Positions 8,747 through 23,513 of a DNA stretch of 64,000 nucleotides are shown piece after piece (position 1 is the first letter of the stretch; every line of letters starts with the position of its first letter). A program made the translations under genes and the position numbers. This DNA is from an uncultured Arcobacteraceae bacterium (GTDB lineage Bacteria; Campylobacterota; Campylobacteria; Campylobacterales; Arcobacteraceae). The notes beneath the pieces were generated by a model. It was not told the DNA's origin, ran no database searches, and saw only the letters and a list, made by a program, of their open reading frames with translations. Location of the stretch: the NCBI GenBank assembly GCA_964022095.1, contig CAXHZO010000003.1:128001-192000 (forward strand), given 5' to 3'.

Positions 8747-9792
8747 TAGTTCTCTTTTTTTATTAAGTTTTCTGGGAAGTTGTATTTAAAGGAAGTTCCT
8801 TCTTCATCAGATTTTAGTTCTATTTTTATTTTGTAATTATCACAAATGTCTTTTACAATACTCAATCCCAATCCTAAGCCAACATTAGCTTTTTTTTGTT
8901 GATAGTATGCATTGAAAACTGATTCCACATCTTTTATTCCAATTCCAAAATCTTTTATTTCAATATAATGTTTTTCTAATATTATATCTATAATTGAGTC
9001 TTCTTTTGAGTATTTTATTGCATTTGAAATTGTATTATCAATAACTCTTTCTAAATCATTTTTATCCATTGTTACACTAAACTCTTCATGTATATCAAGT
9101 CCCATATCTATGTTTTTGATATTTGCCATTTCATCAAAGAACATAACCCTTGAAGATAGAAAATTTACTAAATTTATTGTTTGTAAATCTTGGTTTCTTT
9201 GCTCTTTTTTTGTTAGATAGTATAAGTCATTATATATTGATGATAGTGATTTAGATGAAGCTTTTATAGCTTCAAATTGTTCTTTTGGCCCAAGTTGTGA
9301 TTCTAGATTATCGATATTTAGTGAAATAATACTTAGTGGTGTATTCATTTCATGAATGATCTTTTTTAAAAAGAAATCTTGTTGAGTCAGTAGTTTTTCA
9401 ATTGTTTGTTGCTTTTCAAATATTTTTAGTTGAGTTTTTATTCTAGCTTTAATTTCTTCTTTTTCAAAAGGTTTTGTTATATAATCAACTCCACCTACAC
9501 TTAAAGCTTTTACTTTACTTTCAATGTCATCTAAGGCACTAATAAAAATAATAGGGATTTCTTTTAATAATTCATCTTTTTTTAATATATTACATACTTC
9601 AAACCCACTAATCTCAGGCATTTTAATATCAAGCAATATTAGATGAGGAGGATTGAGTTTTGATGATTCTATTGCAAAGTTTGCATCAGTTGTTGCCTTT
9701 ATTAAATAGTTCTCATCTTTTAAAATTTCATTTAGATATTTTAGATTCTCTTTTTTATCATCTATAATTAAGACTGTATATTTTTTATCCAT
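8746..9792 (-). CDS. Hybrid response regulator/histidine kinase (REC-HisKA-HATPase)
   Basis: IIDD, LDIKMP, KPF; HEMNTPL H-box; NAIKYS; GLGLGL. Confidence 0.9.
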   Translation of the reverse strand: MDKKYTVLIIDDKKENLKYLNEILKDENYLIKATTDANFAIESSKLNPPHLILLDIKMPEISGFEVCNILKKDELLKEIPIIFISALDDIESKVKALSVGGVDYITKPFEKEEIKARIKTQLKIFEKQQTIEKLLTQQDFFLKKIIHEMNTPLSIISLNIDNLESQLGPKEQFEAIKASSKSLSSIYNDLYYLTKKEQRNQDLQTINLVNFLSSRVMFFDEMANIKNIDMGLDIHEEFSVTMDKNDLERVIDNTISNAIKYSKEDSIIDIILEKHYIEIKDFGIGIKDVESVFNAYYQQKKANVGLGLGLSIVKDICDNYKIKIELKSDEEGTSFKYNFPENLIKKEN

Positions 9793-19460: not shown

Positions 19461-19543
19461 TTTTTATTTAAATAAAATATATCACAAGTAGTTGAAATTG
19501 AATTATCTATTAAAGAAGCTTCATAAATAGTTTTTTTAATAGA
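19457..19543 (-). pseudogene. 3' remnant of the IS-interrupted Ntn-hydrolase/proteasome-subunit-like gene
   Basis: Reads SIKKTIYEASLIDNSISTTCDIFYLNKN*, in frame with 22873-22407 once the IS and one TSD copy are removed. Confidence 0.8.
19536..19543. repeat. Target-site duplication, left copy (TTAATAGA)
   Basis: Identical 8-mer at 22407-22414; both copies abut the terminal inverted repeats. Confidence 0.9.
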
Positions 19544-19642
19544 GAGACTGTTTAGAGTTTTGTGTCAAATCCTGATAGTTGAATAAAACTATATCATATT
19601 CATAATTATTTGTAAATTTAATTCCACTAATAATAAATCAAC

Positions 19643-19684
19643 TTGACAAACATATTTTATTATATTAGAATATTCTAATATAAT
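19643..19684 (+). promoter_or_regulatory. Promoter with 12-2-12 ArsR/SmtB-type operator
   Basis: TTGACA at 19643-19648; perfect 26-bp palindrome ATTATATTAGAA-TA-TTCTAATATAAT at 19659-19684 just upstream of the arsR RBS. Confidence 0.8.
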
Positions 19685-19699
19685 TATATTGGAGTTTAT

Positions 19700-20059
19700 A
19701 TGAGTGAAGAATGTTATAGAGAGTCAAGTAATATCAGTGAAGTTGAAAAAGCTAAGAGTTTTATTTCTGATAATCATTTAGAGATAGAAAAAGAATCAGA
19801 AAAATTAGCACTACTGTCAAATAGTGTTAGACTAAAAATTGTATTACTACTTAAAAACTTCAATAAACTTTGTGTATGTGACATTGGTGAAATATTAGAA
19901 GTTAATCAATCTGCAATTTCTCAACACCTTAGAAAATTAAAAGATGGTGGGATATTGAATAAATCAAGAGAAGGGTTAACTATTTACTATTTTATTGATG
20001 AAGTGAATAACCCTGATTTAATAGGCTTATTAGAAAAAATATTTTTATTCAAGGAATAA
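19700..20059 (+). CDS. ArsR/SmtB-family metalloregulator
   Basis: RLKIVLLL...LCVCDI...QSAISQHLRKLK HTH with CVC metal site and an N-terminal Cys. Confidence 0.92.
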   Translation: MSEECYRESSNISEVEKAKSFISDNHLEIEKESEKLALLSNSVRLKIVLLLKNFNKLCVCDIGEILEVNQSAISQHLRKLKDGGILNKSREGLTIYYFIDEVNNPDLIGLLEKIFLFKE

Positions 20060-20061
20060 CT

Positions 20062-21105
20062 ATGGAATTTATATTAAATTTTTTACAAAACTTTTGGGAA
20101 CTATCAGTAATGATAGGATTATATGTTTTAATTGGATTAATTTTTGTAGGAATAATCCACCTATATATTTCAGAAGATTGGATTAAAAAACATTTAGGTG
20201 AAGATAATAAATATAGTGCTTTAAAAGGGGCATTATATGGTATTCCTCTTCCTCTTTGTTCTTGTGGTGTAATACCTTTGGCTACAAGTTTAAGACAAAA
20301 AGGTGCTTCTAAAAAAGCTGTGACAAGTTTTTATATTACTACTCCAATGACTGGAATTGATTCAATTATAGCTACATATGGAGTATTTGGTCTTCCAATG
20401 GCAATAATTAGAGTTATTTCAAGTTTCATTAGTGGAGTTGTTGCTGGTAGTTTTGTAAAAGAATCATATGATGACATTCAAGAAGAAGAGAAAAAGTCTT
20501 GTTGTAGTTCTTCTTGTTGTGGTTCTTCTTCTAATGAAGTAGTAAAAGAGAGTCAATTTAAAAAAGCATATGATTATGCAATGAATGAAGTTTTTAGTGA
20601 TTTAGCCAAACCAATGTTTTATGGGCTAATATTAGCAACTTTATTTTTACTTTTAATTCCAAATAATGGGGTTGAATTTTTAAATGATAATTTGTTTATC
20701 GCTTATGCATTAGTTTTTTTAGTTGCATTACCTTTATATGTATGCTCTATTTCAGCCATTCCTATTGCTTTATCAATGTTAGCAGTTGGAGTAAGTCCTG
20801 GAGTAGCTTTTATTTTTTTAGCAGCAGCACCAGCAACTAATATCATTACAGCAGGGATTATAAAGAAAATTCTTGGAAATGATGTCTTAATAATATATCT
20901 TATCTCAATTATTGTAGTCACTGTTTCATTTGCATTAATGATTGATTTTGCATTTCCAAAAGAATGGTTTGTTTATACATTAGATAGTTTAGAAAGTGAA
21001 TCAAAATCAATACTTGATATAGGTGGTGCTATTATATTTTTAGTCACTATGTTTTATTTTGTTGGTAAGCAATGGATTAAGTCTATATCTTCAAAAAAGA
21101 ATTAA
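20062..21105 (+). CDS. DUF318/ArsP-related permease (SO_0444-like metal efflux type)
   Basis: GIPLPLCSCGVIP and PLYVCS...P motifs, central KKSCCSSSCCG loop, multiple TM segments. Confidence 0.85.
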   Translation: MEFILNFLQNFWELSVMIGLYVLIGLIFVGIIHLYISEDWIKKHLGEDNKYSALKGALYGIPLPLCSCGVIPLATSLRQKGASKKAVTSFYITTPMTGIDSIIATYGVFGLPMAIIRVISSFISGVVAGSFVKESYDDIQEEEKKSCCSSSCCGSSSNEVVKESQFKKAYDYAMNEVFSDLAKPMFYGLILATLFLLLIPNNGVEFLNDNLFIAYALVFLVALPLYVCSISAIPIALSMLAVGVSPGVAFIFLAAAPATNIITAGIIKKILGNDVLIIYLISIIVVTVSFALMIDFAFPKEWFVYTLDSLESESKSILDIGGAIIFLVTMFYFVGKQWIKSISSKKN

Positions 21106-21107
21106 AG

Positions 21108-21130
21108 TAGCCATCTAAAAAAGATGGCTA
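21108..21130. terminator. Hairpin between the convergent permease and transposase genes
   Basis: TAGCCATCT-aaaaa-AGATGGCTA. Confidence 0.65.
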
Positions 21131-21144
21131 TTATACTTATAGTT

Positions 21145-22347
21145 TTAAATACTCAATTGATTATCTAACCTACCTTCAAAAAATATTGTAAGTTGAGAGA
21201 TTGTAAGAGACCAATTCCTAACTGGCATAGTCCATTTTTTATTTGCATTCTGAATTCCCATTTACAATAGTTTTAAAAGTGAATTTTCATTTGGAAAAGC
21301 TCCTTTAGTTTTAGTAAGCTTTCTAAATTGCCTATGTATTGATTCAATAATATTTGTAGTATAGATAATTCTTCTAATATCTTCAGGATATTTAAAATAG
21401 GCAGATAAGTTTTCCCACTTGTTTTTCCAAGATTGAATTACAATAGGGTATTTTTTACCCCACTTATTTTCAAGTTGAACTAATGCTTCTTCTGCTGATT
21501 CTTTTGAAATAGCTTGATAAATAAGTTTTAAATCTTTCATAAACTCTTTTTGGTTTTTTGAAGCAACATATCTAATTGAATTTCTAATTTGATGAACAAT
21601 ACATAGTTGTATTTCAGTATTAGGAAATATAGCATTTATAGCTTCTGGAAATCCTTTTAAACCATCTATTGAAGCAATAAGTATATCTTCTACTCCTCTA
21701 TTATTTAAATCAGTTAAAACCTGTAACCAAAAATTAGCTCCTTCATTTTCTGACAGATATAATCCTAATATCTCCTTTTTACCATTTAATCCAACTCCTA
21801 AAACAGTATAAACAGCTTTAGATATATATCTTCCATTATCTTTAATCTTATAGTGTATTGCATCAAGCCACACAAAGGGGTAGATTGATTCAAGTGGTCT
21901 TTGTTGCCATTCTTTTAATAATGGTATAACTTTATCAGTAACAGCACTTATTGTAGCTTTAGAAAAACTCATTCCATACATTTCTTCAATATGTTCAGAT
22001 ATTTGACTATAACTATTTCCTAAAGCATACAAAGATAGAATTTTTTGTTCTATATTATCTGACATATGAGTTTGATGTTTTTTAACTATTTGAGGCTCAT
22101 AAGAACCATTTCTATCTCTTGGAACATCAAGTTCAAATTCACCAACACTACTTTTCATAGTTTTAATAGATTTACCATTTTTTCTGTTTTTATTTATCTC
22201 AGAAGTTAAATGAGACTCAAGTTCAGCTTGTAATACAGCTTCTGTAAGTTGTTTAATAAGAGGAGCTAAGACTCCATCTTTACCATCTATTTTTGAACCT
22301 GCTTTTATTTGTTCAAGTGCTTCATTTAAATCAAATGTTTGATTCAT
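21145..22347 (-). pseudogene. IS256-family transposase with an in-frame nonsense codon at 21264-21262
   Basis: VPRDRNGSYEP, WLDAI, IDGLKGF, CIVHQIRN and YTTNIIES motifs; past the TAA the frame continues MGIQNANKKWTMPVRNWSLTISQLTIFFEGRLDNQLSI*, a typical IS256 C-terminus. Confidence 0.92.
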
Positions 22348-22406
22348 TGTTCAATCCTTTAGAATTATAAATTCTATCAGACTGACACAAAATTTCTAAC
22401 ACTCCC

Positions 22407-22414
22407 TTAATAGA
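22407..22414. repeat. Target-site duplication, right copy (TTAATAGA)
   Basis: Matches 19536-19543. Confidence 0.9.
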
Positions 22415-22873
22415 TTCAACAATGTCTCCAGTTTCTTTTATATTTTTAGTAAAATATTCATTAAATAAATCGATATTGTCTGTTGATGCAATACTGAAAG
22501 CAATTCCACCATCAATTTTAGGTTCATATTGAATTGTACTTTCTCCTGAATTATTTTTTTGCCAAATAAAGAATTCATTAAATTCATTAACTCCAATAAT
22601 ATTTACTGTATTAGTAATTTCAGTTTGTTTAAATAATTTGTCAGATTCTTTTATTAAGTCATTACTAACTTCATATGAGGATTTAATTTTTTCTACTAAT
22701 TCTAAACCTTCTTTTGTTTTTCCTGTTATTCCAATATATCCAGATTTAGTTTCATTTAATCGAAAAATTTTTTGAAAATTATCACTTAGTACTGAACCAT
22801 CTTCATTACAAATTCTTTTATCTGAAGCCATAAATACACTACCATTTATTAATACAGAAATGACAATACTCAT
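22407..22873 (-). pseudogene. 5' part of an IS-interrupted gene with an Ntn-hydrolase/proteasome beta-subunit-like pattern
   Basis: MSIVISV...FMASDKR...FQKIFRL...GYIGITG; AGGAG RBS upstream; cut at the IS end. Confidence 0.65.
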
Positions 22874-22934: not shown

Positions 22935-23243
22935 TCATTCAAACCCATAAATCAAAAAATCAATAGAGTTTTTTATCTCTTCTTTTTCATTTTCTAAACT
23001 TATAACTTTTTGTTTTAATTCACTTATCACTACTGCACCCATTTGGGCAGTTGTTAGATATACTTTTTCATCATTTATTATAAACTCTTTTGTTAGTCCT
23101 TGTACACCTTTTAAATCTCTAACTAAAGGTATTACAACTCTTGTATTTAATGATTTTAAAATATCATTTTGAACATCTAGTAAGTATGGTACTCTTTGAT
23201 TTGTTTGATTATTTTCATTTATATATACATCAAATTGAGCCAT
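22935..23243 (-). CDS. ccdB: CcdB-family toxin
   Basis: MAQFDVYIN...PYLLDVQND...LNTRVVIPL, C-terminal IKNSIDFLIYGF. Confidence 0.9.
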   Translation of the reverse strand: MAQFDVYINENNQTNQRVPYLLDVQNDILKSLNTRVVIPLVRDLKGVQGLTKEFIINDEKVYLTTAQMGAVVISELKQKVISLENEKEEIKNSIDFLIYGFE

Positions 23244-23485
23244 TAAAACATCCTAGAACTTTTTAAAATAAGTCCATCTTCTTCTACCATTTTATTATAT
23301 GAGTTTATTGCTTCTTTATTTTCTTTTTCCCATGCTTTTATTTTCTCTTCTTTTGAGCTGATATTTAGGTATGAGTTCAAAGCTTCTCTAATGATTTGTG
23401 TTTTCTTTTTGCCACTTTTTAAAGCTTCATTATCAAGTGATGCTAATAATTCTTCTTCCAGTGTAATAGTCATTTTTCTAGTCAT
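23243..23485 (-). CDS. ccdA: CcdA-family antitoxin with RHH (CopG-like) N-terminus
   Basis: RKMTITL...KKTQIIREAL RHH; WEKENKEAINSYN...RMF tail; GGAG RBS before the ATG at 23485; overlaps the toxin start. Confidence 0.85.
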   Translation of the reverse strand: MTRKMTITLEEELLASLDNEALKSGKKKTQIIREALNSYLNISSKEEKIKAWEKENKEAINSYNKMVEEDGLILKSSRMF

Positions 23486-23494
23486 GAAAACTCC

Positions 23495-23513
23495 TTTACC
23501 ATATTTTACCATA
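23495..23513. promoter_or_regulatory. Direct repeat upstream of ccdA, candidate autoregulatory site
   Basis: TTTACCATA x2 with 10-bp period, next to the RBS. Confidence 0.45.

Follow-up and report, generated by a model that had tools for sequence, protein, structure and literature searches.

The DNA analysed here (the window) is a 64,000-nucleotide stretch of contig CAXHZO010000003.1 from an uncultured Arcobacteraceae bacterium. At positions 19544-22406 it carries a 2863-bp element in which one IS256-family transposase gene shares a single pair of ends with an arsR repressor gene and a PF03773 permease gene. Sequence comparison suggests that this element is a transporter insertion sequence (transporter IS, tIS) of the IS256 family with a single transposase, and a fixed-cargo offshoot of a clade whose cargo lies between two recombination sites; we put the probability of this reading at about 0.7. 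All coordinates are window positions unless preceded by a label, where L denotes a compared locus, G a genome (G000 being the host genome) and C a contig of G000.

Ends, copies and insertion site of the element

The terminal inverted repeats of the element agree at 18/24 positions, with CTGATAG 2-4 bases further in at both, and the flanking duplication TTAATAGA is exact. Among the lengths of 5-13 bp tried, 8 alone fits, which rules out a shorter or longer target duplication. The features that define the unit and its insertion site are as follows.

19536-19543, no strand: left copy of the 8-bp target duplication TTAATAGA, exact match
19544-19567, plus strand: cargo-end terminal inverted repeat, 18/24 against the other end
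21145-22347, minus strand: IS256-family transposase, 400 codons in open copies; NF033543 score 410.7 against a cut-off of 150
22383-22406, minus strand: transposase-end terminal inverted repeat, 59 bp upstream of the transposase start codon
22407-22414, no strand: right copy of the target duplication, exact match
22407-22873, minus strand: 5' part of the split host gene (proteasome-subunit-like), with PF00227 in its homolog P0002
19457-19543, minus strand: 3' part of the split host gene, its translation matching the C-terminus of the homologs P0002 and P0003

Scanning with either end and allowing up to 6 mismatches revealed no third end inside the element. A preliminary description, made from the letters of the window alone, had reported the 18/24 ends at 19544 and 22406, the CTGATAG after each, the exact 8-bp duplication and the lack of an inverted repeat just downstream of the transposase, and all of these were reproduced. 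As a chance control, 39,957 exact 8-mer repeats lying 1-10 kb apart in the host genome, with G..C inside ends, were compared, and three pairs reached at least 18/24. Two of them are the ends of the window element and of its sister on C12, and the third lies on C1. The pair on C1 (G000:C1:12905-18639) has 8-bp repeats and inner ends inverted at 19/24 positions, and may be chance. The combination of inverted repeats and a duplication can by itself occur about once per genome by chance, and proof of the unit therefore comes from its recurrence at other sites together with the split host gene.

Six other end-to-end copies (L019, L022, L040, L041, L150 and L162) differ from the window unit by 20-34 mismatches, the full-length ones being 97.9-99.4% identical to it, and lie within six different exact duplications. 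The transposase is open (400 codons) in four of them; one copy carries an insertion of 26 bp, and another has lost 653 bp. On a metagenome contig from run X7, the whole of 19544-22406 is flanked by CCATTGTT on both sides, bringing the comparison, with the window, to eight sites with eight different 8-bp duplications. Movement as a single unit, as claimed in the preliminary description, is thus borne out at seven loci (the window included) and on the X7 contig, each with its own duplication; the same ends with different duplications, which it had proposed to look for elsewhere, are found at the six loci and on that contig. One outcome that it had named as contradicting this, other copies that end right after the transposase and never reach the 19544 end, was not seen, as 7/8 loci with the window transposase and cargo terminate at a 19544-type end. 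At the eighth, L042, the transposase and genes are present without the cargo-end inverted repeat and the sequence reads on into dsbB/dsbA. At none of these eight loci is a near-identical transposase directly bounded by an end of its own.

The insertion divides a host gene: the part to the right of the element is 74% identical to P0002, and the flank to its left continues as the C-terminus. No clean empty site, with a single copy of the duplication as sought in the preliminary description, was found: two relatives, G001 and G019, have neither the element nor the split gene beside urtE, and the empty-site evidence rests on the homologs P0002 and P0003 because G001 and G019 lack the split gene. 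Both relatives have urtE without arsR-permease next to it, so that transposase-less relatives keeping arsR-permease at this locus, the other outcome named as contradicting the earlier claim, were not seen there. Taken together, we regard the element as almost certainly a unit transposon.

The cargo half with its end recurs at 99% in 6 other genomes from 4 genera among the 184 family genomes searched, and named records with the window transposase belong to Arcobacter, Aliarcobacter or Arcobacteraceae. Near-identical DNA is present in 19/23 runs listed, from 15 studies and from marine, landfill, sponge and wastewater habitats, with 3 runs flagged as a possible source of the window DNA; RNA-run contigs also contain the element, a matter of presence only and no measure of transcription. 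In a plasmid collection of 72,556 records, none covers 80% of the element and only distant IS256 transposases were found. The element is recent and widespread, crossing genera at ~99% identity. In L022 it has inserted into another IS256-like element, 41 bp from the end of the latter (9414-9455), with integrase-like and restriction-like open reading frames (ORFs) on either side.

The window transposase aligns with that of ISCth4 (PDB 6XG8) with an E value of 1e-118, and the IS1249 and ISH6 models score far below their cut-offs. It carries an in-frame stop at codon 362/400 (21262-21264), missed by the preliminary description, which leaves 361 aa; the same stop occurs in a run that may be the source of this DNA. 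We take D162, D228 and E335 to be the catalytic triad, on the strength of the 6XG8 alignment and of the motifs of the family; the stop lies past this putative triad, and the missing tail aligns with the end of the ISCth4 transposase. Because of the stop, the window copy probably cannot move itself, and the open sister transposase on C3 could move it in trans. An intact IS256 transposase would copy the element out as a circle and then paste it in.

Paired 26-bp sites in the related clade

A tree of 37 rows, out of 42 after removing identical ones and with broken transposases and loci without defined ends left out, places 15/15 cargo transposases on one side of a branch (support 98/97) and 22 plain IS outside it. 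More distant relatives (57-85%), as far as their ends could be located, are plain IS of 1.3-1.5 kb. The transposase-end pattern is present in 39/184 family genomes, and the 44 rows with both ends comprise 16 distinct other elements of 1248-14651 bp with exact duplications and 7 with inexact or unmatched flanks. Repeats of the same place were removed before counting (L001-L006, L010, L020, L021, L039, L043, L045-L047 and L137-L143), L033 was excluded because it is a plain IS with another IS inside it, and automatic inverted-repeat pairings in L117 (spurious) and L112 (nested) were dropped. The far ends of plain IS256 relatives, like those of other clade members, share the first ~55 bp of the window element's cargo end. 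According to a family scan, cargo in the clade includes LysE, PhzF, an EF-hand protein and a class D beta-lactamase, while efflux, two-component and oxidase-like genes were judged from sequence only. The beta-lactamase gene is found in L045 (1455-2213), L135 and L168 (NF012161, 281.5 against 250), and the flanks of this member form no duplication in L045 and L168.

Two sisters reside in the host genome. One is a LysE carrier on C3 with an open 400-aa transposase, whose other end apparently lies at the start of C10 (the 8-bp flanks match) and which stands outside the both-ends table; the other is a 3544-bp element on C12 with its transposase deleted and a duplication of its own. Also on C12, the stretch G000:C12:1-2012, cut on its left by the contig end, holds LysR and transporter-like ORFs between an inverted-repeat-like start, an AC site (see below) and a far end, and adjoins integrative-element-like genes. 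In L120 and L136, a ~420-bp stretch just outside the transposase end is repeated 4 kb inside at 86%.

Most cargo-carrying members contain a 26-bp imperfect palindrome (12+2+12) ~140 bp past the transposase and a second one 65-100 bp inside the far end, in a shape that we take to be like hix, gix and res site I. Scored out of 21 with a consensus blind to the core, these sites reach 13-20/21; of 3000 random 100-bp windows, 17 attained 15 with their best match and 318 attained 13. The core of the left site is AG in 33/34 scoring sites (36 distinct, 47 rows), and that of the right site is AC in 19/20 (26 distinct, 31 rows). L132, L169 and L170 occupy one insertion site with flanks 96-99% alike, have lengths of 4415, 2050 and 7675 bp with different cargo, and diverge at or just past the right core; L170 is without the left site, and one 347-bp inner piece is common to L132 and L169. 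Likewise, L134, L152 and L155 are identical as far as the left core and different beyond it.

IS256-end-like sequence abuts the cargo-side half of many AG sites and reads into the cargo (for example L027:7398, L044:1510, L155:941 and L197:2159). The idea that this copy after the AG site marks a random circle-junction spacer was rejected, the spacer being a conserved half-site. IS1182-family elements (NF033551) interrupt an AG site (L173:1918) and an AC site (far end of L174) exactly at the core, pointing to possible targeting.

A 187-aa serine resolvase (PF00239) has matches in 29/184 genomes, a few of them only 44-48% alike, and 30 resolvase loci were compared. Close copies have an AC site ~67 bp upstream (14/14 scoring, 23 examined) and an AG site ~69 bp downstream (18/20 scoring, 22 examined); 4 distant resolvases have no upstream site. 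The same cargo-side ends are joined to unrelated transposon and resolvase arms, type with type only: the best cargo-side identities are 0.90 and 0.92, the arm side gives 0.29-0.48, and cross-type controls are at most 0.58. Because this pair of sites also encloses the resolvase gene, cargo could be exchanged by way of a circle that contains both resolvase and cargo. L151 and L161 read end-transposase-AG-cargo-AC-resolvase-AG-cargo-AC-end, which is the four-site intermediate that such a model predicts.

The sites also occur around the resolvase on two Aliarcobacter plasmids, in the 30.7-kb stretches L219 (pM830MA 127186-157932) and L220 (pAFAEC 19933-50672), with 10 and 7 site calls where 0.35 are expected and the shuffle maximum is 1. 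AC sites are confined to one strand and AG sites to the opposite one, the two often forming AC-AG joints with a spacing of 77 bp, and no IS256 end was found in either stretch. Joints come every few kb, and the genes between the sites include TIR, PLD-like, DUF2971, DUF262, HNH and Shedu-annotated genes.

The clade cargo would sit between two unlike crossover sites (AG and AC) of the serine-recombinase type. Like sites in direct orientation would permit integration and excision of a circle, and the unlike cores would keep the cargo from being cut out alone; a circle of resolvase and cargo could integrate through one site and be released through the other, exchanging the cargo while the transposon stays in place. 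We infer such swapping at the two sites for this clade. The broader proposal, to which we give even odds, is that Arcobacteraceae may harbour an undescribed cassette system in which a small serine recombinase acts on two mutually incompatible 26-bp sites as a natural recombinase-mediated cassette exchange. It would build plasmid arrays and would have been taken up by one IS256 clade as a reloadable transposon for metal, efflux, signalling and defence-like genes, with the window element as a frozen product.

Window arsR and permease are 95-100% identical to the copies in L183-L185, where no transposase is present, the genes have an AG site on one side and an AC site on the other, and a worn inverted repeat stands at the position of the window's cargo end. 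The window element is probably a frozen, fixed-cargo derivative of the site-bearing clade, which has lost both sites and has the inverted repeat next to arsR as its end.

Cargo genes and genomic neighbourhood

The cargo and its predicted regulatory signals are listed below.

19643-19671, plus strand: sigma70-like promoter TTGACA-17 bp-TAGAAT, predicted by eye
19659-19684, no strand: perfect 26-bp palindrome across the -10 box, candidate ArsR operator from its sequence
19700-20059, plus strand: arsR, ArsR/SmtB-family repressor of 119 aa, PF01022 and NF033788 above cut-off
20062-21105, plus strand: PF03773 permease of 347 aa, nearest to the SO_0444 Cu/Zn efflux family
21106-21132, no strand: 11-bp hairpin between the converging permease and transposase genes, -15.1 kcal/mol

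Profile matches and sequence agree with the preliminary description in placing arsR, an operator-like palindrome and a Cys-rich permease within the single-transposase unit. Members of the ArsR family repress their own promoter and are released by metal. The window ArsR has cysteines at positions 5, 58 and 60 (LCVCD), and the palindrome is likely its operator; the repressor would silence its own promoter until a thiol-binding metal ion frees it, and the permease would export that metal. The hairpin is likely a terminator. The permease has a CSC motif at 66-68 and a CC..CC loop, and scores 299.8 bits with NF033936, 0.2 bit below the cut-off of 300, while its close homolog in L028 reaches 300.4. 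The SO_0444 Cu/Zn family is described with a CSC motif (bioRxiv 10.1101/2022.07.06.499078), and in Shewanella loihica a DUF318 gene is reported to matter under zinc stress (bioRxiv 10.1101/072470). Related arsR-permease pairs adjoin CzcA and CDF exporters, and older homologs (79-87%) lie beside CzcA, CDF and RcnR-like genes. We would assign the exported metal to Zn/Cu/Cd-type ions at ~60%, to arsenicals at 30% and to others at 10%, and we infer a role of the element as a metal-resistance carrier.

A second, more distant permease, apparently of the same family, is encoded at G000:C2:295686-296876, outside any element seen. The split host gene encodes a stand-alone proteasome-subunit-like protein (PF00227 in homologs, 22 matches) and lies beside ccdAB. 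The ccdA-ccdB pair (window 22935-23512) stands between urea transporter and urease operons, and is near urt genes in G001 and G019 too.

Alternative explanations and known systems

Several observations weigh against the derivation of the window element from a two-site clade or against its supposed function. The window element has neither an AG nor an AC site, its best scores of 14 and 13/21 being at background level; the cassette model therefore explains its relatives and not its present behaviour. Its first 100 bp are only 47-83% like those of L183-L185, so that the derivation may have run in either direction, and the conservation of arms up to the core reflects in part common descent. The resolvase search found no close copy in the host genome. 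At resolvase loci, 9/23 upstream and 2/22 downstream sites fall below the threshold, and 2 scoring downstream sites have other cores. At L219:19953 an AC-type half is joined to an AG-type half, so site specificity is not absolute. No circle junction (end-to-end joint) was found in four contig sets, contigs being prone to drop rare forms. On the side of function, the permease misses its family cut-off, if narrowly, and the comparable czcD metal module of ISPpu12a, an ISL3-family element of 3372 bp, is reported to have given no resistance in tests (PMC4447125).

The element might instead be an eroded composite transposon, in which two IS256 copies once flanked arsR-permease and one was reduced to its outer ~55 bp while the other lost its inner end; it would still be a mobile unit, with no cassette origin. 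This would account for a cargo end that resembles the far end of plain IS256 relatives over ~55 bp, for the lack of sites at that end in L002, L158 and L168 as well, and for the inverted repeat-arsR junction without a site beside it in L187, an 87% homolog. We nevertheless consider it unlikely, as the window transposase nests within the site-bearing clade, the window genes are so close to copies lying between AG and AC sites, and no remnant of a second transposase is found inside the element. A present-day composite with two flanking IS copies is rejected on the single transposase and the missing inner end, and ISEcp1-type one-ended capture on a far end that is fixed and conserved across the clade and a transposase with no adjacent end. 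The notion that an arsR-permease operon was already in place when a plain IS256 inserted next to it, with the far inverted repeat and the duplication arising by chance, can point to the one unrelated-looking pair of equal score in the host genome; it has a negligible probability and is refuted by the presence of the unit at seven further sites, each within a different duplication, in line with the split host gene and with relatives that lack the operon at this locus.

For the cargo differences within the clade, RecA-type recombination between conserved arms, or ordinary resolvase side-reactions at res as in Tn3-like elements, would dispense with a dedicated swap system. In the Tn3 family, transposons are described as exchanging parts at res site I, their identity ending at the central dinucleotide (PMC7157771), and many site-bearing hosts are without the resolvase, whose matches occur in fewer genomes (29/184) than the IS256 end does (39/184). 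Homologous recombination, however, does not explain why one and the same cargo end meets unrelated arms at the core, like type with like, nor does it account for plasmid arrays in which the AC and AG sites are strictly oriented (10 and 7 calls against 0.35 expected), and copy-out transposition of the IS256 type needs no cointegrate resolution (PMC7780238, PMC3942029). We therefore hold this explanation to be doubtful, if somewhat less so than a composite origin, and retain descent of the window element from a two-site cassette clade.

Neither the window element nor the two-site system was found described in the open literature; IS256 exceptions could still be recorded in ISfinder, in subscription papers or in supplements such as the element table of PMC3942029, which this search did not take in. 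IS256 and ISCth4 are described as copy-out/paste-in elements with 8-bp A/T-rich duplications (PMC7780238, PMC3942029), and family members such as ISCth4 share with the window element the transposase family, ~24-bp imperfect ends and an 8-bp duplication. Unlike plain IS256, the window element has passenger genes between the transposase stop and the far end, making it an IS256 derivative. A 2014 survey presents all 109 p-MULT 1 (IS256-group) elements as plain IS (Guerillot et al. 2014, PMC3942029), and the window element would extend passenger-carrying IS to this family. Transporter IS are defined by IS-like ends, one transposase and unrelated passengers (PMC9330008, PMC3129680, bioRxiv 10.1101/2021.05.26.445724), and the window element resembles them in its passengers within one end pair, its single transposase and its unit movement; the TnCentral preprint limits the class to IS1595 and IS66 (10.1101/2021.05.26.445724). 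ISPpu12a is likewise a single IS with a metal-export module, but differs in transposase family and exporter. The p-MULT 4 elements (ISAzba1 and ISKra4 groups) combine a Mutator-like transposase with extra genes, five of them with a serine recombinase proposed to act in resolution (PMC3942029); their transposase family is different from that of the window clade, and two-site cargo brackets do not figure in that account of them.

Should cargo indeed be swapped at the two sites, Arcobacteraceae would capture genes by a serine-recombinase route, a parallel to integrons and pdif modules, in a family with food- and water-borne species and with a class D beta-lactamase gene in one clade member. The res site I exchange of the Tn3 family (PMC7157771) is similar in that sequence identity ends within a serine-recombinase site, at its central dinucleotide; there, one res site swaps a whole arm, whereas in the clade described here two unlike cores bracket the cargo and the resolvase gene has one of each. 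The pdif modules of Acinetobacter plasmids (PMC9501444) likewise form gene arrays between recombination sites, but pdif sites are acted on by the tyrosine recombinases XerC/XerD, whereas the present sites, which are 12+2+12 palindromes, go with a serine resolvase.

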